Sequence record: PP620640
Origin: Escherichia phage fKMPT1
Reading direction: 5' to 3' (one strand)
Length of the DNA: 64,000 nt
The notes under the pieces were generated by a model, which made no database searches, had not been told where the DNA came from, and saw nothing but the letters and a program-made list of their open reading frames with translations. This document shows, piece after piece, positions 7,510-64,000 of the stretch (positions are counted from its first letter, which is position 1; each line of letters starts with the position of its first letter). Made by a program: the position numbers and the translations under genes.

Positions 7510-7785
7510 CAATACATCTGGTCAATACACTCGCAAGGTGTACCAGTTCTCTTATGAACTTCTCCGCATTTCTACGGAGTGTCGGACTATATCACGTAGC
7601 AGGATGCTACCGTTGCACTTGGGAATGGTCATTAGCTTACCACCCTACTCTACTCAGTTCATACGTTAAGTATGCTTTTCGATAGTCTCTGAACGTTCCT
7701 CTCAAGAGGCTTCGCTGCTGATTACCGTATCTTCTCAGACTTAGGCTTCCAGCAATTCACAACGTTTTACATGCGCCACTGACGC
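7510..7785 (-). ncRNA. putative group I intron interrupting DNA polymerase motif B
   Basis: 276-nt ORF-less insertion between ...KNGIY and FGAGDEK...; upstream exon ends in U, intron ends in G; GUAAA near intron 5' end could pair with exon UUUAU (P1). Confidence 0.45.
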
Positions 7786-9924
7786 ATAAATGCCATTTTT
7801 GGCTTTCTTACGACCTTTTGTAATCTCGTGGAGAAGTTCCTCATCCTGTGTATACCTACAACGAACAATATCTTCTTCCTTGTTCAGACCAAAGTAAATA
7901 CTGTTCAGTGTATGTGCATCAGTACCTGTGTATACTTCATAGAGGTCATTCTCAGCATCATAACGAAGGTACTTGTCAGTTTCTGGATTGAGGTACTTAT
8001 CAAGATGCTTGCAATAGTATCTTCCATCCTCTTGCTTGGTAAATTCTACTGACTCTTTACCTTGTGTTACCGCTTTAGTGAACTCTTCATCACCCATAAA
8101 GTTACAAAGAAGAACTAGCTGTGCTGAGTTTTGGTCTACAGAGATGATATCTGTCCCCTCTTCACAAGTCCACACCTCCCTCATAGGTGCTCCATAGACA
8201 GCAGCACCAGACGGTACGTTTACAATACCATATTGTGTCATACGTCCAGTTGAAGTACCAAATACCATTGCACCAGCACTAAGGCGACCATCAGGACGAA
8301 TCTGGTTCAACCAACCTTTTTCATCATCCTTTGAGTTCTCAATAGTTCTGCGTCGGTGCATCAAAGTATAGTACTTAGCAATCTTCTGTCCAAGCTCACC
8401 TTCAATCGTATCATAAGATGATTCAGTAAGTTTTGGTGAAGTACGGATTAAGCAAGGTTCAAGCAAATCTGTGTATTTCTTCACAGACCAGTTATGTTCA
8501 ATGTACTGGACACCTTCATGTTCAACATAACTCAAACCACACCTTTCAACCATCTCATCCCACTTAGGATGCTTTGTAATCATCTTTTTGTTGTCTTTGA
8601 AACGACAAACTTTGACAGGACGACCATCTGAGTCTTTCTTGTAGTTCCAGTCATCTGGAATCCAACCAACTGATTTCAAATAGTCTTTCACAACTGCTAC
8701 CTGAGTCATACGAGAAACTTCGAACTCAATTGGTGTATATGGTGCATCAATCAAACCTGTGTAGCGACTTGACTCAAGCTCAAAGTGGTTAACAACATGG
8801 CTGTTATAGTACTTCACAGTTTTAACTGTTTTTACTGGCTTCCAATCTTTGCACTTCTTACCAATCTTTGCATTCAACTCATTGCAAATTGCACGAGCAT
8901 CCTTCATTGCTACAAAACCTTCCTTGTACTCTTCACCAGTTACAGAGTTGGTTGGTGTATAGCAATTCCGCTTTTCAATGTTAAAAATCTTTGTAGTTGG
9001 CTTACCAAATGGCTTGATTTCATATGTCTGCATCTCACCGTTACGTACCTGCTGACGATACTTTGTCTTAGGGTACTTGGTAATTCTCTTCAGTCCATCT
9101 GCGTGACCAAATGCTTCAACATACTCATTCCAAGCTTTTGCAAACTCTTCTCCAGTGACTTTAACTTTGGTCTTGATAGTTGGAGGAAGATGTGGTTCAA
9201 CTTCTGAAGCAAGCTCATTAGTCAACTTGTCAAGTTCCTTTACATGGAACTCCATAAGCTCTTTATCAGCTTTCCAACCATTGATAGCTTGTTGACTCAT
9301 CCAGAAAGATGTTTCTTTAGCTCGCATGTAGGTTTCATAAGTATCTACGCCACACTTCTTCAGCTTGAGATATTCATTATCCAGTGCACGTTTAGTTTTG
9401 GCGTTAATACGGATATCTTCTACAACACGAGTGAAGATTTCTGCATTCCACACACCCCAATGTTCAATCTCTGGTTTACGTACACCGACACGAGCACCCC
9501 ATGCAGCCAAGCCATGAGCACCTTTATAGCCTTTTGGAGTTGGTCTATCCATCCATTGAACACGAGATTGGATAAGAGAATCCTGAAAGAAATTACTCCA
9601 CGGCTTACACTTTGGATTATCAAAGTTCCACAAATCAGGTGCAATGTGATTGAAAACCCACCAGTCATACCCCAGACCATTATGGATGCAAAGTCGTTTT
9701 GCCTTTAACGCAAACTCAACACCTTCACGCAAGCCACCCTTAATGTACTTGGTATACTTGTGACCGAGGATAGGCTCATCTGTAAAGACCCATACAGGTG
9801 GCTCTTCATCGTCAGATTTATAGTCTGCGAAAGCCATTACGTGTACTTTAGTGAACTCAAGGAGTAAACCATCAGTTTCTGTATCGCCAACTAAATGTAA
9901 GTTTTTAAAATCTACGTTTTCCAT
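7786..9924 (-). CDS. DNA polymerase (family A) with 3'-5' exonuclease domain, exon 1
   Basis: DTETDG exo motif; motif A VDQNSAQLVLL; start taken at MENVDF with upstream GGAG RBS; frame runs 14 codons into insertion before stop at 7741. Confidence 0.85.
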
Positions 9925-56769: not shown

Positions 56770-58185
56770 ATGAGCGAATTATTTAAACATGCGCACCTTC
56801 ATGCAGGTCGAACTGAAAATGGTGCTGTAAACCATACTTCATCAATGTCTGCTCTTGTAGACTTTTACAAAGCTGCTGGTTCAAGCCGTAGCAATGTAGA
56901 AATCTTACCAGACTTGTTCTACAAAGCTTTGCGTGAGGATGTTGATGTTGCAGTTCGTATTTTGCTTCACATGCGAGATGTACGAGAAGGTATGGGTGAG
57001 CGTAAAGCCTTCAGAACTGTTTTACTTCAAGCAATCGAAGATAAAGTTTTAGAGCCTACACAGGTTCTTCGTATTATGGATAAGATTGCAGAACTTGGTC
57101 GTTTTGATGACTTCAAAATCTTCGTAGGTACTCGTTTTGAGACAGATGCCTTTAAGCATTTAGAAGCAGCATTACTAGACCCTGAGACAGCAGGTTTAGC
57201 AGCTAAGTGGTTACCACGAGTAAAACCACGACACAAACAGTTTGTAAAACGTTTCTGTAAGTTTGCTAACTTGAGTGAGAGAGAGTATCGCACACTGTTA
57301 TCTGTACTGTCTGATACTGTTGAGCAAAAAATCTCTGCTAATGAGTTTGGTAAGATTGACTACAGCAAGATTCCTTCACTCGCTGCTGCACGTTACCAAA
57401 AACTCTTTAACCGTAAAGATGGTGAACGCTACAAAGCTTACATCGAGTCACTCTCAAAAGGTGAGGCTAAGATTAACGCTGGTGCTGTTTACCCATACGA
57501 TGTGATTAAGTCTATCAAGTATGGTAATGCAGATGTTGCTAATGAGCAGTGGAAAGCACTACCAAACTGGATGGCAGAAGGTGAAAACATTTTGTGTATG
57601 ACTGATGTTTCAAGCTCAATGTCTTGGGTGAATCTTGGTTCAATCACTGCTCTTGATATTGGTGTATCTCTTGCCTTGTATGTAGCAGAACGCAACACTG
57701 GTTGCTTTAAGAATGAGTTAATGGTTTACTCAACAAACCCTCACTTCATCGAACTGAGTGGTGATTTACGAAACCGTCATCGTCAGGTAATGCGTCACGT
57801 TGAATATGGTTCAACTAACTTACAAGCAGCTTTTGACCGTATTCTTGAGGTAGGTAAGAGAAACAACTTGACTCAGAAAGATATGCCAAGTAAGCTTATT
57901 ATCTTCTCTGATATGGAGTTTAATCAGGTTGACGGTGCAAATGGTCGTACAAACTTTGAAGCAATTCAGAGTAAGTACAAAAAAGCTGGATACGAAATGC
58001 CACAACTGGTATTCTGGTACTTAGCAAACCGTAATGGTACTTGCGAAGTATCTGTTAAGGATAACGGTGTAGCAATGGTATCAGGGTTCTCTCCAGCCAC
58101 TTTAAAAGCTCTGCTTGGTGGTGAGAAGTTTGACCCAATCAGCGTAATGCTCAAAGCAGTAATGATTGACCGTTACATCTGGTAA
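56770..58185 (+). CDS. vWA-domain protein with helical N-terminal domain (TROVE/Ro60-like or DUF2828-like candidate)
   Basis: 471 aa; helical N-terminus, then MIDAS-like DVSSSM and SDMEF vWA features. Confidence 0.5.
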   Translation: MSELFKHAHLHAGRTENGAVNHTSSMSALVDFYKAAGSSRSNVEILPDLFYKALREDVDVAVRILLHMRDVREGMGERKAFRTVLLQAIEDKVLEPTQVLRIMDKIAELGRFDDFKIFVGTRFETDAFKHLEAALLDPETAGLAAKWLPRVKPRHKQFVKRFCKFANLSEREYRTLLSVLSDTVEQKISANEFGKIDYSKIPSLAAARYQKLFNRKDGERYKAYIESLSKGEAKINAGAVYPYDVIKSIKYGNADVANEQWKALPNWMAEGENILCMTDVSSSMSWVNLGSITALDIGVSLALYVAERNTGCFKNELMVYSTNPHFIELSGDLRNRHRQVMRHVEYGSTNLQAAFDRILEVGKRNNLTQKDMPSKLIIFSDMEFNQVDGANGRTNFEAIQSKYKKAGYEMPQLVFWYLANRNGTCEVSVKDNGVAMVSGFSPATLKALLGGEKFDPISVMLKAVMIDRYIW

Positions 58186-58203
58186 AAAGTTTTAAAAAGG
58201 GTA

Positions 58204-58232
58204 TTGACAATGTGTTTAATACCCTTTAATAT
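58204..58232 (+). promoter_or_regulatory. sigma70-like promoter upstream of tRNA array
   Basis: TTGACA - 17 nt - TAATAT. Confidence 0.5.
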
Positions 58233-58350
58233 GTTCTACATAGAAACGAAATGAGAGCTTTTCTAAGATACTGAAAAATATTTTAAAAAAGTTCTTGACA
58301 ACCACTAAAAAATAATGTTAAAGTGGTTACATAGAGTTTGAAAAGTTTAT

Positions 58351-58427
58351 CTCTGTTTAGCTCAGCTTGGTAGAGCGTTCCGTTTGGGGCGGTAAGGCCG
58401 GAGGTTCAAGTCCTCCAACAGAGACCA
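58351..58427 (+). tRNA. tRNA-Pro (anticodon TGG)
   Basis: hand-folded cloverleaf, GGTTCAAGTCC T-arm, encoded CCA. Confidence 0.7.
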
Positions 58428-58434
58428 AATTAAT

Positions 58435-58512
58435 GTTCCAGTAGACAAAATGGTAAAGTCACCACTCTTTCAAAGTGGATATTTGAGGGTTCAAATCCCT
58501 TCTGGAACGCCA
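58435..58512 (+). tRNA. tRNA-Glu (anticodon TTC)
   Basis: perfect acceptor and anticodon stems, encoded CCA. Confidence 0.7.
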
Positions 58513-58603
58513 GTTTTGACAGAAGACCAATTGCAGCAAACTTAATCTTATTCATCTGACACGAAATCGGACAAAGAAGAGATTTGGTCTGGTCATTAAG
58601 AAT

Positions 58604-58680
58604 TGCGGGTATAGAGAAAGGGCGTCTCACATGTCTCATTAGCATGGTATCGGCAGGTTCGACTCCTGCACCCGCCTCCA
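58604..58680 (+). tRNA. tRNA-Met (anticodon CAT), 1:72 mismatch
   Basis: T-arm and anticodon arm clear; acceptor 5' boundary uncertain. Confidence 0.55.
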
Positions 58681-58763
58681 AATTTACAGAAGACCGTTTA
58701 CAGCAATATTTATTAAATTTTTAGCGGAAAAATTGAAAGATACGGTCTGGTAATACTAAACAT

Positions 58764-58840
58764 GGTTAGGAAGCACATAAGGTATGTGCGGTCGCCTGTT
58801 AAGCGAATGGCACAGGGTTCGAATCCCTGACTAACCGCCA
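58764..58840 (+). tRNA. tRNA-Asn (anticodon GTT)
   Basis: cloverleaf with perfect T-stem, CCA encoded. Confidence 0.65.
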
Positions 58841-58909
58841 AATTTAGGAGAGAAGCGATTGCTCACCGATTTGTAAGGTGCAAGTCCTTAGCCTGAATAG
58901 AAATTAAAT

Positions 58910-58997
58910 GTGTCGTTATCCCGTAGATGGTAGCGGTGGGGACTGTAAATCCCTTGTCATTGAGACTCGGTAGGTTCGACTCCTACACGGCACACCA
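58910..58997 (+). tRNA. tRNA-Tyr (anticodon GTA), long variable arm
   Basis: 88 nt type II structure, anticodon loop CTGTAAA. Confidence 0.7.
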
Positions 58998-59003
58998 AAT
59001 AAA

Positions 59004-59081
59004 GGTTATGTAGTTTAATCTGGTTAAAATACTCCCCTGTCACGGGAGATGATGAGGGTTCGAATCCCTTCGTAACCGCCA
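59004..59081 (+). tRNA. tRNA-Asp (anticodon GTC)
   Basis: anticodon arm ctccc-CTGTCAC-gggag. Confidence 0.7.
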
Positions 59082-59537
59082 AATTATAATAAGTATTTCA
59101 AAATGATGTTTTGAGAGGGCTATTTAGCCCCTCCCTTAAAGAGTTCTTACGAGTATTCTTTAAAGGAGCAGAAGACCAAATTCAGCAAGAACGTATGAAA
59201 TTTCAAGCCAATTTAATTTTGAAAATTTAAAACTTGGTCTGGCTCAACAAATTTACAGAAGACCGTTTACAGCAAAACTTAAACAATCTATTTCTCGGTA
59301 AAGAAAAGGCGAAGGTTCGATTCCTTCACTCGGCAGATGTCGAGTTGGTGTAATGGTAGCACTTAAGATGATAAACAACGGTCTGGTAATTGTCTTTGCA
59401 GTAGCTTATGTGGCTAATTATGTCGTCCCATGAGTGCCGATGAATTTCCTTAGCATGATTCTAGATTAGCTTAATAGGAAATGACTCTACAGACCCTTTA
59501 GCAAGGTCTGCGTAGGTTACTGCAAAGATAATTTAAT

Positions 59538-59613
59538 GGAAGTGTAGCAGAATGGTGATGCGGCAGACTTTTAATCTGACAGGCGATGGGTTCGAATCCC
59601 TCCACTTCTACCA
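59538..59613 (+). tRNA. tRNA-Lys (anticodon TTT)
   Basis: cloverleaf; weak T-stem; paralogous to 60859-60934. Confidence 0.55.
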
Positions 59614-59617
59614 ATAT

Positions 59618-59694
59618 GGTTCAGTCGCAGATAAGGTAATGCAGGGGTTTCATAAGCCCTATGAATGTGGGTTCGATTCCCATCTGAACCTCCA
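59618..59694 (+). tRNA. tRNA-Met/Ile2 (anticodon CAT)
   Basis: perfect acceptor stem, anticodon loop TTCATAA. Confidence 0.65.
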
Positions 59695-59696
59695 AT

Positions 59697-59771
59697 TGTG
59701 GGTTAGCATAAATGGTAATGCAAACGGCTGATAACCGTTAGAAGAGGGTTCGATACCCTCACCTACAACCA
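59697..59771 (+). tRNA. tRNA-Ile (anticodon GAT)
   Basis: anticodon arm aacgg-CTGATAA-ccgtt perfect. Confidence 0.7.
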
Positions 59772-59786
59772 ATTTCAATAAAGTTG

Positions 59787-59815
59787 TTGACATTGAGATG
59801 TGACTACTTTATAGT
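59787..59815 (+). promoter_or_regulatory. sigma70-like promoter inside tRNA region
   Basis: TTGACA - 17 nt - TATAGT. Confidence 0.55.
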
Positions 59816-60109
59816 AACTGAAAATGATTCAGCATATGTATAATTCAAACACCAATACATGAGCGTTAGACGTAACACAATGTGGGGAAATTTGTTGTAC
59901 ATATTCTGAATAGTTTTCGTTGCGTAGCGTCTATTTTGCAAAGTTAAAATAAATGCAAACGACAATGTTTTTCTGGCAGTAGCTTGATAGGCTAAACACC
60001 AGTGAGGTCTTCCAACCCCTCATCAAAGAATTTGGCGTACTAGCCCACGGTATGATTAATAAGGTGGGCATCTTTAAGGGCTTTCTAAGAGAGTCTTTAA
60101 AGATAATTA

Positions 60110-60191
60110 CGGGGCGTATCTCAGCTGTCTTCTAAACAGCCGTTAACCGAGTAAGTGGAGTATGCGGGTTCGAGTCCTGCCGCCTCGACCA
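60110..60191 (+). tRNA. tRNA-like gene, non-canonical (no D-arm; anticodon-like hairpin with TCT)
   Basis: perfect acceptor and T-arm with CCA; internal hairpin gctgt-CTTCTAA-acagc; only 7 nt where D-arm should be. Confidence 0.4.
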
Positions 60192-60334
60192 ATTTAGTTA
60201 GCAGATTACTTAGACGACCTTATCGGGTCTTCCTGTAGGGAGGTGGTCTGTATCTCATGTTTTCCAGAACATGTAAATAATCTGAGAAGGGGCTTTACAG
60301 TGTTGTGAAAATACGGTAAGCTTCGAACTATAAT

Positions 60335-60417
60335 GTGGGACGATGTTAAGACTCTAAGGCATGAGCAACGGCTTCCAACACCGTTTCAAAGGGGTTCAAA
60401 TCCTCCGTCCCATGCCA
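60335..60417 (+). tRNA. tRNA-like gene, isotype undetermined (9-nt loop hairpin containing CCA/TCC)
   Basis: acceptor/T-arm/CCA canonical; internal hairpin aacgg-CTTCCAACA-ccgtt; D region irregular. Confidence 0.4.
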
Positions 60418-60430
60418 AAGTCTTATTAGG

Positions 60431-60518
60431 GGTAGGTAGCGGCTAATGGTAGCCAAACTGTCTTGAAAACAGTTGCCACTGTAGAGATACGGTGAGGGTT
60501 CGACTCCTTTACTTACCG
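60431..60518 (+). tRNA. tRNA-Ser (anticodon TGA), long variable arm; CCA not encoded
   Basis: anticodon arm actgt-CTTGAAA-acagt perfect; 20-nt variable arm. Confidence 0.65.
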
Positions 60519-60773
60519 CCTAATAAGATTTACACCGTCCATGCTCGCTCGCATTTTCGGTTTATCCCTCGTGTTGTCGTACACTTTGATAAAGCACCTA
60601 GTAGGTGTCACGGAGAAGAGATAATATCAAGCTCTCCAAAGGTTCTAGTCACCGGATTAAACAAGACTATGCAAAGACCTATTTAGGTCTTTTTAGAGGG
60701 CTTCTAAGGTTATTACAGCTTGTTGTGGAACCTTGTTGCTTAGGTTCTTAGAAGTTCTCTAAAAAGATTTAAT

Positions 60774-60851
60774 GGGAGATTGACGGTAATTGGTAAACCT
60801 ATCTCGCTTAGAACGAGATGTTTGAGGGTTCGAATCCCTTGTCTCCTACCA
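60774..60851 (+). tRNA. tRNA with Leu anticodon TAG, short variable arm
   Basis: anticodon arm tctcg-CTTAGAA-cgaga perfect; type I length; A73. Confidence 0.55.
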
Positions 60852-60858
60852 AATTAAT

Positions 60859-60934
60859 GCAGGTGTAGCAAAATGGTTATGCGGCTGACTCTTAATCAGT
60901 AAGACGATGGGTTCAATTCCCTCCACCTGTACCA
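60859..60934 (+). tRNA. tRNA-Lys (anticodon CTT)
   Basis: anticodon loop CTCTTAA; encoded CCA. Confidence 0.6.
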
Positions 60935-60940
60935 AACATT

Positions 60941-61016
60941 GGGGTCATAGTTTATATGGTTAAAATTCGAGTTTTGCAAACTTGGGAACTGAGTTCAATT
61001 CTCAGTGACTCCACCA
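60941..61016 (+). tRNA. tRNA-Ala (anticodon TGC)
   Basis: G3:U70 wobble in acceptor stem, anticodon loop TTTGCAA, perfect T-stem. Confidence 0.75.
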
Positions 61017-61022
61017 ATTAGT

Positions 61023-61097
61023 GCATCCATAGTTTAAACGGGAAAATTACAGTCTTCCAAACTGAGGTTGAGGGTTCGATTCCCTCTGGATGCTCCA
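61023..61097 (+). tRNA. tRNA-Gly (anticodon TCC)
   Basis: perfect acceptor stem, U73 discriminator, anticodon loop CTTCCAA. Confidence 0.7.
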
Positions 61098-61103
61098 AAC
61101 AAT

Positions 61104-61180
61104 GCTGCTTTCGTATAATTGGCTATTACACATCCCTTGTAAGGATGGAGATGCGGGTTCAAGTCCTGTGAGCAGCACCA
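61104..61180 (+). tRNA. tRNA-Thr (anticodon TGT)
   Basis: anticodon arm catcc-CTTGTAA-ggatg perfect. Confidence 0.7.
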
Positions 61181-61275
61181 ATTTAGAGGTCAAGTGAAAG
61201 ACCGCTGGTGTCAACTGAAGACCGTAACAAATTCCACGGAGTTGAGTTAGCGGCACAACTTCAGACCTCTTTCAT

Positions 61276-61350
61276 ACTCGCTTAGTTTATATGGTAAAAC
61301 ATCACCCTTACAAGATGAAGAAAAAGGTTCAAGTCCTTTAGTGAGTACCA
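61276..61350 (+). tRNA. tRNA-Val (anticodon TAC)
   Basis: perfect D- and T-stems, anticodon loop CTTACAA. Confidence 0.65.
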
Positions 61351-61351
61351 T

Positions 61352-61429
61352 GTTCCAGTATCCCAATTGGCAGAGGATGCAAGCTCAAACCTTGTACTAG
61401 TGACGGTTCGAATCCGTCTTGGAACACCA
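61352..61429 (+). tRNA. tRNA with Leu anticodon CAA, short variable arm
   Basis: anticodon arm gcaag-CTCAAAC-cttgt; type I length; A73. Confidence 0.55.
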
Positions 61430-61543
61430 ATTTTAGGAGAGCACTATGAGTGATAAGTCAATAGCAAAAAAGTTTAGAGCGTCATACCTAAACAGACGTA
61501 AAAACAAAGATTGTGAAAAACTGTATGGTGTTCTTGTAGGTAA

Positions 61544-61619
61544 GCAGGATTAGTTCAAATGGATAGAGCAGCAGTCTACGAAGCTGTTAATAGGGGTTCG
61601 AATCCCTTATCCTGCGCCA
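61544..61619 (+). tRNA. tRNA-Arg (anticodon ACG)
   Basis: perfect acceptor stem; anticodon loop CTACGAA. Confidence 0.65.
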
Positions 61620-61638
61620 ATTTAAAGAGGCTATTTAG

Positions 61639-62196
61639 ATGAGATATTTGAAGTATGCTTCATGGATTTTCTTAGCTTTGTTAGAGCCATTTGCAGCAAT
61701 CTTAGCAGTTATCTTAGCACCTTTCGTGGTTCCATTCTACAGTGAGAAGAAAGGACATCTACCTTTCGGCTTCAGATGGATGGAGACATACGACAACCCA
61801 ATTGATGGTGATGAAGGTCATGTCGAACGATGGGCTAAGATTAGAAAGATTGGTAAGCTGGGTGTCTACATGCAGAGAGTTGGATGGCTCTGGAGAAACA
61901 AAGCTTATAACTTCTCTTACCATGTATTAGGAAGAGATGTAAAAGATGTTACTAAGTGGAAAGGCAATATCAACGTAAGTTCTAACCCTGAAGATAATCA
62001 GACAGGTTATCTCCTAATGTGGAACAGTAATGCTTGGGGATTATTCGCTTTTATCCCATCAATTAAAGTCTTTGGTAAACAATTCTACTGGAGAATTTAT
62101 ATTGGGTGGAAGCTAAAAAGTGTTGTCCCAGAAGAAAGAGCATTCTCAAGGGAAAGAGTTATGTTGGCATTCTTTATTCATCCACTAAGAAAGTAA
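61639..62196 (+). CDS. membrane protein embedded in tRNA array
   Basis: 185 aa; N-terminal hydrophobic helix, aromatic-rich C-terminus, AAAGAGG RBS. Confidence 0.55.
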   Translation: MRYLKYASWIFLALLEPFAAILAVILAPFVVPFYSEKKGHLPFGFRWMETYDNPIDGDEGHVERWAKIRKIGKLGVYMQRVGWLWRNKAYNFSYHVLGRDVKDVTKWKGNINVSSNPEDNQTGYLLMWNSNAWGLFAFIPSIKVFGKQFYWRIYIGWKLKSVVPEERAFSRERVMLAFFIHPLRK

Positions 62197-62204
62197 AGAT
62201 TTAA

Positions 62205-62280
62205 AGGGGATTAGTTTACAAGGTTAAAACCTCGGTCTTTGAAATCGAAGAAGTTGGTTCAATTCCAACATCCCCCGCCA
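62205..62280 (+). tRNA. tRNA-Gln (anticodon TTG)
   Basis: perfect D-, anticodon and T-stems; 1:72 mismatch. Confidence 0.65.
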
Positions 62281-62282
62281 AT

Positions 62283-62361
62283 GCTCCATTACTCCAATTG
62301 GCAGAGAGGCCAGACTTAAAATCTGTGTTATGTATCGGTTCGAATCCGATATGGAGTACCA
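62283..62361 (+). tRNA. tRNA with Leu anticodon TAA, short variable arm
   Basis: anticodon loop CTTAAAA; perfect T-stem; A73. Confidence 0.55.
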
Positions 62362-62366
62362 AATTT

Positions 62367-62442
62367 AGCGGTATAGCATAACTGGCAATGCAGCAGTCTC
62401 TGAAGCTGTCCTATTAAGGTTCAAATCCTTATGCCGCTGCCA
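62367..62442 (+). tRNA. tRNA-Gln (anticodon CTG)
   Basis: perfect D- and T-stems; anticodon loop CTCTGAA. Confidence 0.65.
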
Positions 62443-62473
62443 CTTCTAAGGGTTCTTACGAGAGTCCTTAAAT

Positions 62474-62549
62474 GTGGCCTTATCATAAACGGTAATGACC
62501 CATGCTGTGAACATGGTCTATACGGGTTCAAATCCCGTAGGTCACCCCA
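62474..62549 (+). tRNA. tRNA-His (anticodon GTG)
   Basis: all four stems near-perfect; C73 discriminator. Confidence 0.75.
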
Positions 62550-62554
62550 ATTTA

Positions 62555-62631
62555 TAGTCCAAGTAGCTTATATGGTTAAAGCGCGTGTCTGAAAAACATG
62601 AGAAGAGGGTTCAAATCCCACTGGACTACCA
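62555..62631 (+). tRNA. tRNA-Phe (anticodon GAA), boundaries approximate
   Basis: anticodon arm cgtgt-CTGAAAA-acatg; acceptor/D junction irregular. Confidence 0.5.
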
Positions 62632-62646
62632 ATTTCAAAGGTGCTT

Positions 62647-63382
62647 AATGAAAGAGATGACAGAACAAGGTAAGGAGATTTTTAATCTCTTAAAAACTGG
62701 TAAAGGGTTTTCTAACCCCCTTATTACTGGTGCAGCAGTTCTCGGTGGAACCGTAGCTGCCTCTACATCACTTGTAAGCTCTATTAGCTCTGTAACAGAC
62801 CCTACAATAAAAGATAAGCTTGTTGCTGCTGGGCTTACAACAGTTCTGCTTAGCAGCTTTACAACGAGTCTGACAAGCACTACAGCAACTACTAAGACCC
62901 TAACAGACTATGGTCAAAAGTCCATTGATGAGTTTTCATCACGTATGCAGGTAGCAAAAGGTTATTCTAATGCTATGGGTGCAGCAGGTGAACAAGTTGG
63001 CTGTACACCATTTAGTGGTATTATGGGTGTTGCTACAGAGTATGGTCAAAAAGCTATGGATACGATTAACAGCGCACTAGATGGCGTTAATGATGTATTA
63101 AGCGACTTACAAGATGCTATTGACAAAGGTCTTGATACTGTTTCTGATTTAGCTAACCAAGCTGTTAGCAAGATTAATGAAGGTATCTCGAAGATTACAG
63201 CTTATGCAGATGAAGTTGTGCAGATGATTGAAGAAGAAGCTGCCCTTATTGCAGAGTACCTTAAAACGAATATCAATGGGTTCTTAGCAGGTATCTTACC
63301 AGACTGGTTTGATGATGCTTGTAAAACTGGTGTGATTGATACTATTGCAACACCAGAAATGAAGAACGCATTACAGAAATAA
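62647..63382 (+). CDS. hypothetical Ser/Thr/Ala-rich protein
   Basis: about 245 aa from ATG after AAAGG; track ORF start 62585 overlaps tRNA-Phe and is unlikely. Confidence 0.5.
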
Positions 63383-63383
63383 C

Positions 63384-63476
63384 GGAAGATTAACCCTAAA
63401 AGGTAAGGGAGCAGTTTGCTAAACTGCCAGTAGCTGAGAAATCGGTGTACCAGTTCAAGTCTGGTATCTTCCTCCA
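63384..63476 (+). tRNA. tRNA-Ser (anticodon GCT), long variable arm
   Basis: 93 nt; anticodon arm gcagt-TTGCTAA-actgc perfect; T-stem perfect; CCA encoded. Confidence 0.7.
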
Positions 63477-63480
63477 ATTT

Positions 63481-63556
63481 GAATCCGTGACAGAAATGGC
63501 TATGTGCCTGTCTGCAAAACAGGTTTATAAGGGTTCGAGTCCCTTCGGATTCTCCA
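63481..63556 (+). tRNA. tRNA-Cys (anticodon GCA)
   Basis: perfect acceptor stem, U73, anticodon arm cctgt-CTGCAAA-acagg. Confidence 0.7.
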
Positions 63557-63778
63557 AGTTATTTTACTCTCTCTCAATTAAAATAATAATAATGCCCTGC
63601 TATAAGTATTCTTCCTTTCGCTACCGAAGAGTATTTTTAGACAGGGCTTTTTTACAGAGTTATACTTTATAAGAAGCCTTATACAGTATGTCTCTGACGT
63701 ACATTGTGGTTTCTCCTTGACGGTCTCTGTGCCGTCTTTTTTAAGGGGAAACAAGATTAATTATTTGGAGAAAACATA

Positions 63779-63979
63779 ATGAGCGAGAACGTTTATAAAG
63801 AACTTTATGAAGCTAACAAGAAGCTAGAATTTATGCAGAATACTATCATGGCAATTGCAGACAGATTATCTGTAGCAACAGGCATTGATATTAAAGAAGC
63901 ATCTATGGATGCACTTCTTGATGCTGTTGATGCAAAGTTCGAAGTTAAGAAAGAAGAGACTGCTACAGACTCTGAATAA
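63779..63979 (+). CDS. hypothetical small acidic protein
   Basis: 66-aa ORF with GGAGAAAA RBS. Confidence 0.5.
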   Translation: MSENVYKELYEANKKLEFMQNTIMAIADRLSVATGIDIKEASMDALLDAVDAKFEVKKEETATDSE

Positions 63980-64000
63980 TTCTATTTGCGGAGGTGCTTA

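Follow-up and report, generated by a model that had tools for sequence, protein, structure and literature searches.

A conserved RNA resembling the mRNA-like half of tmRNA in the tRNA array of Escherichia phage fKMPT1 and in many other enterobacterial phages

The genome of Escherichia phage fKMPT1 (sequence record PP620640) contains, within an array of tRNA genes, a promoter followed by a stretch nearly devoid of open reading frames (ORFs), in which we found a conserved RNA that resembles the mRNA-like half of transfer-messenger RNA (tmRNA) and is called the core here. The analysed DNA, the window, comprises 64,000 nucleotides (nt), and all coordinates are positions in it; its phage is a Felixounavirus (Felix O1-type), and the region considered is 99.9% identical to Salmonella phage fBSPA4. 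ARAGORN placed 25 tRNA genes at 58351-63556, with no tRNA or tmRNA call at 59771-60431 and no tmRNA call in the window, and plus-strand ORFs of at least 25 amino acids (aa) at 59771-60431 were limited to two of 27 aa and one of 37 aa. An earlier reading of the letters alone (the sequence-only reading) had proposed that a near-consensus promoter here fires into about 300 nt without a convincing ORF or tRNA, that a tRNA-like sequence follows at 60110, and that this segment and a second ORF-poor segment downstream are candidate small RNAs. The promoter and the empty stretch both held up. The promoter matches 11 of 12 consensus positions, is identical in relatives, ranks highest of 17 promoter-like sites in 58000-64000 (13.4 expected, hence no excess of such sites over chance) and is among only 3 sites in the 64 kb with at most one consensus mismatch at 17-nt spacing (1.0 expected); the only plus-strand ORF of 25 aa or more in the ~300 nt behind it is a 27-aa frame at the 3′ edge. 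The tRNA-like sequence, which that reading had used only as a boundary, is real as well, and the proposal of promoter-driven small RNAs stood for the first segment, a covarying and widely conserved RNA whose identity had gone unrecognised, and for the second only as far as its non-coding character goes (Table 1).

Table 1. Features of the promoter-proximal non-coding region in the tRNA array of the window (bp, base pairs).
Feature	Position	Strand	Characteristics or basis
Sigma-70-type promoter TTGACA-17-TATAGT	59787-59815	+	-35 at 59787-59792, -10 at 59810-59815; predicted start near 59822
Optional 5′ hairpin	59822-59912	+	long hairpin (RNAfold) with long stem and conserved cargo AAUUCAAACACCA ... 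GGGAAAUUUGUUGU
tmRNA-like core (mRNA-like domain and two pseudoknots, no tRNA-like domain)	59914-60078	+	covariance model R1
Start-less tag frame	59955-59990	+	ANDNVFLAVA, 10 codons, then TGA TAG
Helix-5-like hairpin with frame end and stop codons	59973-60002	+	outer helix 59973-76/59999-60002, inner helix 59981-83/59991-93
Pseudoknot A	60003-60035	+	5-bp hairpin 60003-07/60018-22; loop bases 60012-15 pair with 60032-35
Pseudoknot B	60036-60069	+	stem 1 60036-41/60049-54; stem 2 60043-48/60064-69; third loop UGAUUAAUAA conserved
Spacer hairpin	60070-60104	+	ATCTTTAAGGGC...GTCTTTAAAGAT (sequence)
Non-canonical, D-arm-less tRNA-Arg(UCU)-like RNA	60110-60191	+	covariation, 25 distinct members
Structured spacer	60193-60334	+	fold z = -2.5; Ounavirinae only, modular in relatives
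Decayed tRNA-like sequence	60335-60417	+	8-bp acceptor-like stem, weak T arm, 9-nt loop CUUCCAACA
Second ORF-poor segment	60521-60675	+	non-coding, hairpin-rich, Ounavirinae only
Terminator-like hairpin AGACCT-ATTT-AGGTCT	60675-60690 (with T tract to 60694)	+	6-bp stem, 4-nt loop, T5

A covariance search bore out the first segment: model R1 gives a single match in the window (135.2 bits, E = 6.9e-25), inside a block (59909-60085) that is conserved across 64 representative loci. Across 61 diverse copies, 99% of the 19 core pairs are paired and 11 of the 19 are changed on both sides, with a covariation score of 0.306 (0.134 in shuffles) and 31-45% pairing in slid controls; RNAalifold alone recovers two of the core helices. 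The outer helix of the helix-5-like hairpin is 95% paired, with three of its four pairs changed on both sides (GC:29, AU:27 at one pair). In pseudoknot A, which has a 10-nt hairpin loop, both helices are 100% paired and the stem covaries (CG:33/UA:28, GC:37/AU:23), and the pairing of loop and downstream bases occurs as CCAA/UUGG, CCGA/UCGG or CCAG/CUGG (the last in lambdoid phage HK633) and is replaced outright by GUUUC/GAAAU in a plasmid that looks like an SSU5-type phage-plasmid. Stem 1 of pseudoknot B was found by RNAalifold and is 99.7% paired (CG:44/GC:10/UA:7 at one pair); stem 2 varies by lineage in sequence and length with its complementarity kept, as read from the alignments, and was misaligned by MAFFT owing to the differing lengths. 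Upstream, each lineage also has a helix with a 3′ strand that stops about 6 nt short of the GCA codon discussed below (CUUUG/CAAAG, UUAUG/CAUAA and, in the window, UAUUUU/AAAAUA); it lies at the position of tmRNA pseudoknot 1 (PK1) and looks nested rather than knotted, in a part where the alignment is unreliable. Judged by comparative analysis, the core is shown to be a real, selected and structured RNA common to many unrelated enterobacterial phages.

An alignment of five copies exposed, within this structure, a frame like that of ssrA. From 5′ to 3′, the core consists of an A-rich leader, a GCA resume codon without a start codon, a 10-codon frame, stop codons within the helix-5-type hairpin and the two pseudoknots; in the window, the leader AAAAUAAAU precedes GCA AAC GAC AAT GTT TTT CTG GCA GTA GCT TGA TAG, and the four other tags of the alignment read ANDNTFLAVA, ANEEVYLAVA, ANDDVVLMAA and ANDAQFLAVA. 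A pattern scan of IMG/VR for the core returned 120 loci, and every true homologue among them has the frame (17 distinct peptides at first count). At the nucleotide level, the 98 unique copies fall into 32 versions; each has exactly 10 codons and fits AN[D/E]....[A/V]A, and the five conserved tag residues show 1 extra nucleotide state at codon position 1, 1 at position 2 and 8 at position 3. In 89 of the 98 copies, the same frame has a stop 6-15 codons ahead of GCA and no ATG, GTG or TTG between the two, and an alternative frame from an AUG overlapping the leader was rejected, that AUG being missing from the Ackermannviridae copies. The frame thus evolves as if translated where no conventional initiation is possible, which is the signature of a tmRNA message; because the constraint falls on codon meaning, we infer that it is read. 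The window presents what marks a tmRNA message, namely a start-less frame that resumes on Ala, encodes a short tag ending in hydrophobic, Ala-rich residues and closes with stop codons, the stops lying in a helix 5 and the pseudoknots following the frame, with compensatory changes in support.

The core was found in 608 phage records, among them Ounavirinae, Ackermannviridae, Schitoviridae, the lambdoid HK633 and unclassified 46-48-kb Klebsiella phages, with Chaseviridae added through a covariance-model match in phage flopper (98.6 bits). Sensitive BLAST with 59946-60070 gave matches in Ackermannviridae, the 46-48-kb Klebsiella phages, the N4-like IME11 and Erwinia phage phiEa21-4, and with 59837-59918 a match in flopper; each time, the matches of the stretch in unrelated phages lay in unannotated DNA adjoining tRNA genes. 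Among complete Escherichia coli genomes, 350 of 5,426 (~6%) carry the core, at 141 chromosomal and 219 plasmid places, and it is never annotated, either in these genomes or in the phage records. The listed core-bearing E. coli plasmids are ~95-115 kb in size (R1 scores 72 bits in one of 110 kb), and those of ~110 kb look like SSU5-type phage-plasmids in size and gene content. As one instance, E. coli plasmid NZ_CP027358.1 (L290:2468-2639) has a diverged core with the tag ANEEVYLAVA, a promoter-like site of its own upstream and tRNA-Asn, Tyr, Thr and Ser downstream. The location is always either a tRNA or non-coding island or a late leader between pR′/tR′ and the holin gene, as in HK633, the only annotated lambdoid phage examined, where the core sits in the late leader between pR′/qut/tR′ and the holin gene. 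Of 64 representative loci, 30 have their own promoter and 34 have none: in 19, which include other phage families, the end of a sigma-70-type promoter is separated by 7-12 nt from the conserved 5′ sequence AGUUUUCG, and in 11, including the window, 82-97 nt with a long hairpin separate promoter and core.

Only tmRNA families of Rfam respond to the core, all below threshold and in five independent lineages: RF00023 and RF04321 in the window, RF04321 (33.1 bits, E = 6e-5) and RF01849 in IME11, RF04321 in VLCpiS13b and HK633, and RF01850 in Cba120, the matched part being the leader and the frame. With E. coli tmRNA the core shares an A-rich leader (AAAAAUAGUC-GCAAACGAC in E. coli, AAAAUAAAU-GCAAACGAC in the core), a GCA resume codon without a start codon, a tag of 10 codons (ANDENYALAA compared with an ANDxxxxLxxA-type tag) beginning GCA AAC GAC, stops in a helix-5 hairpin, pseudoknots after the frame and the enterobacterial setting. 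It differs in lacking an acceptor stem, T arm and CCA end, in its length (~165 nt compared with 363), in having only two pseudoknots, both downstream, with no demonstrable PK1, and in its unrelated sequence outside the frame. The coding piece of two-piece (permuted) tmRNAs (RF04321, RF01849 and RF01850) gives the best of the sub-threshold matches, its RF04321 consensus being identical in the leader UAAAU-GCA-AAC-GAU, and in some lineages the long 5′ hairpin stands where the model has the helix bearing its tRNA-like domain; the acceptor piece, however, is missing, with ~70 model positions of tRNA-like domain reduced to a 14-nt loop in IME11. Where the 5′ hairpin is present it contains neither T arm nor acceptor, and many lineages have no room for an upstream acceptor piece, because the promoter abuts the core (7-12 nt, 19 of the 64 loci). 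An Rfam tmRNA_permuted match at 59714-59987 was rejected in its tRNA-like part as an artefact that borrows the T arm of a tRNA-Ile beyond the promoter, and a contig scan for a bacterial tmRNA with the same pseudoknots, as a possible origin, was uninformative (degenerate pattern; 2 of 120 matches real, both prophage-like). Among known phage systems, an exhaustive survey of ssrA in RefSeq viruses found tmRNA only in eight mycobacteriophages, to which its authors added, from genomes outside that dataset, Bacillus phage G and mycobacteriophage DS6A, the latter encoding little more than the tRNA-like domain of tmRNA, a kind of molecule that inhibits tmRNA (PMC4131195). DS6A and the core are alike in being phage-borne halves of tmRNA and are opposite in content, DS6A keeping the tRNA-like domain and no message, and the core keeping the message and no tRNA-like domain. 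Complete two-piece tmRNA genes are present in marine phages (PMC9004378), and the searchable literature (subscription-only literature lay outside the search) yielded no description of the core, its tag peptides or Felix O1 small RNAs like it.

From these comparisons, we class the core as working like, and probably descended from, the message domain of tmRNA; because no tRNA-like domain is attached, we place it outside the tmRNA family, and ARAGORN and Rfam do not call it for the same reason. That it is an RNA of the tmRNA mRNA-like-domain type we consider very probable, and we lean slightly towards its frame being actually decoded; the full statement, that it is a tmRNA derivative reduced to its mRNA-like half whose frame is decoded and which acts on host trans-translation, we hold to be about evenly balanced. 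Several results weigh against that statement. The Rfam tmRNA scores are only 15.3-33.1 bits, with thresholds of 47-84 (RF00023, RF01849-51, RF04321); R1 gives no match to E. coli ssrA; and ARAGORN, which calls E. coli ssrA as a control, detects a tmRNA neither in the window nor in 900-nt extracts of 64 representative loci, 50 of which receive no gene call at all. A custom scan for an acceptor stem, T arm and CCA within 1.5 kb of the core found ordinary tRNAs and a few odd tRNA-like RNAs, so that an acceptor and T-arm partner shared by all lineages was rejected, and the nearby tRNA-like RNAs do not keep G3.U70. Pairing with host tmRNA was rejected too, the whole-molecule duplex energies between the core and host tmRNA being no better than those of shuffles. 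The last four codons of the frame also lie in a helix, and part of the frame conservation could therefore be structural. Finally, we know of no route by which an mRNA-like domain enters the ribosome without a linked tRNA-like domain.

If the decoded-message interpretation is correct, the promoter would transcribe a multi-part RNA whose first conserved product is the core and which would run on through the tRNA-Arg(UCU)-like RNA, the decayed tRNA, a tRNA-Ser, a spacer and the hairpin at 60675-60694. Ribosomes would read the core frame after a template switch of the trans-translation type, and stalled nascent chains in the infected cell would receive a phage-specified tag, (A)ANDNVFLAVA in the case of the window and of the degradation-tag type, in place of the host tag or in addition to it. 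The acceptor function would be supplied in trans, either by host tmRNA-SmpB or by separate tRNA-like RNAs of the same non-coding islands. In the E. coli tag, SspB binds the N-terminal AANDxxY and ClpX the C-terminal LAA; ANDxxF/Y is retained in many phage tags that end in LAVA or LMAA, and we speculate that these ends fit an altered fate of the tagged proteins. A more radical version, which we think unlikely, is that the free-standing mRNA-like domain suffices for template switching: leader and pseudoknots would dock on a ribosome with an empty mRNA channel, one that has stalled on a broken message or that host tmRNA-SmpB has just left, and place GCA in the A site, where ordinary Ala-tRNA would read it. 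Were this so, phages could re-tag or un-tag the products of host rescue without a tRNA-like domain, and the tRNA-like and mRNA-like functions of trans-translation would be separable in nature. As tmRNA is defined by the union of its two halves, a selected, promoter-driven, message-only version would be unexpected. Its carriers, virulent and temperate enterobacterial phages, ~110-kb plasmids and ~6% of complete E. coli genomes, widen the interest, and the core offers an experimental handle on how phages deal with host ribosome rescue and on whether the halves of tmRNA can work apart. For annotation, hundreds of deposited genomes show either no feature or spurious small ORFs at the core locus.

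The difficulty of picturing ribosome entry without a tRNA-like domain speaks for a decoy or sponge, that is, an untranslated mimic of the mRNA-like half of tmRNA which titrates a factor of trans-translation, for example S1, ribosome-bound SmpB or RNase R, and so dampens or redirects host ribosome rescue during infection. Leader, helix 5 and pseudoknots are the parts of tmRNA that touch ribosomal components, which counts for a decoy as well. The partial tmRNA of DS6A is a precedent for an inhibitor (PMC4131195). A pure RNA mimic should, however, conserve nucleotides and not codon meaning, whereas the frame varies at third positions (1/1/8) with its amino acids fixed, always has 10 codons and ends with a protease-type C terminus followed by a stop; we regard the decoy as a tentative possibility. 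A once complete, perhaps two-piece, phage tmRNA gene could also have left behind a decaying, functionless fragment, given that two-piece genes exist in marine phages (PMC9004378) and that the leader best matches the permuted-tmRNA consensus. Compensatory changes, the kept frame, promoters of its own and a spread over five or more phage families and a lambdoid subfamily point instead to continuing selection, and such a relic appears highly improbable. Both the decoy and the relic are rated below the decoded-message interpretation.

Two further explanations dispense with tmRNA altogether. The permanent association of the core with tRNA islands or operon leaders, the long processing-type hairpins flanking it and the sub-threshold Rfam scores would suit an RNA with a regulatory or processing role in the tRNA or late operon whose likeness to ssrA tags is coincidental, but the coincidence would have to span the leader, GCA, the first codons, the length, the Ala-rich hydrophobic end, the stops in a hairpin, the pseudoknots and the codon-type variation, in every lineage, and we think this improbable. 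That the segments hold small protein-coding genes is scarcely credible: short ORFs exist, and automatic annotation lists four to six of them as 'hypothetical protein' in several relatives, but they are of 25-64 aa, overlap tRNAs and are broken by 2-nt indels and block exchanges, and the conserved pattern is one of base-pair covariation.

Downstream of the core, the tRNA-like RNA at 60110-60191 escaped both ARAGORN and the Rfam tRNA model and gave only a weak tRNA-Sec match (23.3 bits). It begins with a 7-bp acceptor; a canonical D arm is lacking, and UAU and a 3-nt strand precede the anticodon stem, with the partner of that strand 3′ of the anticodon arm, forming a 3-bp helix (60120-22/60149-51) continuous with the 5-bp anticodon stem. 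After the 7-nt loop CUUCUAA (anticodon at 60131-33) come a bulge of 8 nt, a segment of 12 nt (UAAGUGGAGUAU), a T arm whose loop is TTCRA, the discriminator A and an encoded CCA. The 25 distinct family members derive either from phages infecting E. coli, Klebsiella, Streptomyces or Vibrio or from metagenomes; pairing holds in 99% of their cells, both sides have changed at 15 of the 20 pairs, and covariation is 0.72 (0.19 in shuffles). The 3-bp helix occurs as CUC/GAG, CGC/GCG or CAC/GUG, the consensus is CGUUAAYY for the bulge and UAAKUGGAGUAU for the 12-nt segment, and two members have the anticodon CCU. The family is found, unannotated, in 277 phage records as well as in metagenomic viral contigs, and sensitive BLAST with 60109-60195 matched phi92, KpS8, EC.P1 and Streptomyces phages. 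A canonical tRNA-Arg(UCU) fills the same slot in SLAM_phiST56 and other relatives, and the arrays with the odd form contain no canonical tRNA-Arg(UCU). It is most likely a decoder of AGA whose core is rearranged; alternatively, it may imitate the anticodon arm of tRNA-Arg as a decoy. Like the D-arm-lacking mitochondrial tRNAs, for example metazoan tRNA-Ser(AGY) (background in PMC4013460), it keeps acceptor, anticodon arm and T arm without a conventional D arm; unlike them, its 3-bp helix encloses the anticodon arm and a D-loop-like UGGAG stands in the variable-region position. If charged and decoding, the family would represent a natural non-cloverleaf tRNA on bacterial ribosomes.

This RNA was also considered as the missing tRNA-like domain of the core and rejected: the window copy has G3.U70 and A73, but pair 3:70 varies in the family (GC 12, GU 5, AU 4, CG 3, UA 1), which also occurs in phages without the core, and in relatives canonical tRNA-Arg replaces it. 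A separate type of reduced tRNA-like RNA, with an acceptor and T arm and a 4-5-nt loop in place of the anticodon loop, shares non-coding islands with the core in IME11 (L006:2402-2468), flopper (L257:2107-2199) and Cba120 (L004, ~100 nt 3′ of the core); CCA is encoded in IME11 and Cba120 and not in flopper, and G3.U70 occurs in none of the three.

Hairpins flank the core on both sides. The 5′ hairpin, lying between promoter and core, is missing from Felix-like contigs L024, L096 and L102, where the promoter abuts the core, and in the Chaseviridae phage flopper the core is preceded by a homologue of this hairpin whose stem shows compensatory changes. The idea that the cargo of the window hairpin (UUCAAAC-ACCA ... 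GGGG) is what remains of a T loop, a CCA end and the 5′ strand of an acceptor stem found no support: the strands do not pair. On the 3′ side, the place of the spacer hairpin is taken in L003, L096 and L102 by a stem with a 26-nt cargo, and the window version looks, from its sequence, like an 'empty' form of these cargo-carrying stems. Long cassette stems with exchangeable cargo of 50-90 nt flank the core in many phages (60070-60104 and 60683-60772 in the window; L128:3119-3228; L003, L008 and L016), and the same cargo CCCTTATGGGGCTTGGCTTAAATGCA occurs in different stems of Felix-like and lambdoid contigs; these stems may be processing sites or a modular family of small RNAs.

Beyond the tRNA-Arg(UCU)-like RNA, relatives have an HNH endonuclease gene (L003:2036-2383) inserted in the equivalent of the structured spacer. 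A second promoter-like site (GTGAAA-18-TATAAT, 60305-60334, 10 of 12) stands directly upstream of the decayed tRNA-like sequence, which neither ARAGORN nor Rfam calls and in which the differences from SLAM_phiST56 break pairs and do not compensate. The second ORF-poor segment folds no better than shuffles (z = -0.3) and differs among relatives by two alternative 45-nt hairpin blocks and 2-nt indels. These indels and the exchange of the 45-nt block bear out the doubt that had been cast on a 64-aa ORF at 60492-60686, which starts within tRNA-Ser (60431-60520) and, as judged from this variation, is not a gene. The clean terminator claimed for the end of the segment is present as a hairpin with T5, one base away from where it had been placed, and fails the criteria of the terminator scan, which does not list it because the T tract is too short. 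The T5 (60690-60694) counts the last stem base, the stem has three G-C pairs and is kept in relatives while the loop varies, and the T tract forms the 5′ arm of a long hairpin at 60683-60772 (26-nt inverted repeat; z = -3.8). We regard the element as terminator-like, of modest strength by its sequence.

Several other elements of the window and its relatives lie outside the segments above. The 20-nt motif CAGAAGACCNNTTNCAGCAA occurs four times on the plus strand (58520-58539, 58687-58706, 59169-59188 and 59256-59275), only inside the tRNA array and with 0.03 occurrences expected by chance, and could be a processing, promoter or homing-site signal. In relatives, HNH homing endonuclease genes sit at differing points of the tRNA array (L001:400-828; FelixO1, Alf5 and Sugarland), that of Sugarland adjoining the odd tRNA-like gene. 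The 456-nt gap from tRNA-Asp to tRNA-Lys holds a T-arm-like sequence, GAAGGTTCGATTCCTTC (59309-59329), which was flagged by the scan as a minus-strand terminator and suggests a further tRNA remnant. Far from the array, a group I catalytic intron (RF00028) matches the minus strand at 7562-7844 with 59.9 bits, above the gathering score. Lastly, an ORF of 185 aa (61639-62196) follows tRNA-Arg(ACG) within the tRNA array, and the corresponding position is annotated, by annotation only, as a holin in SLAM_phiST56 and as a hypothetical protein in Si3.

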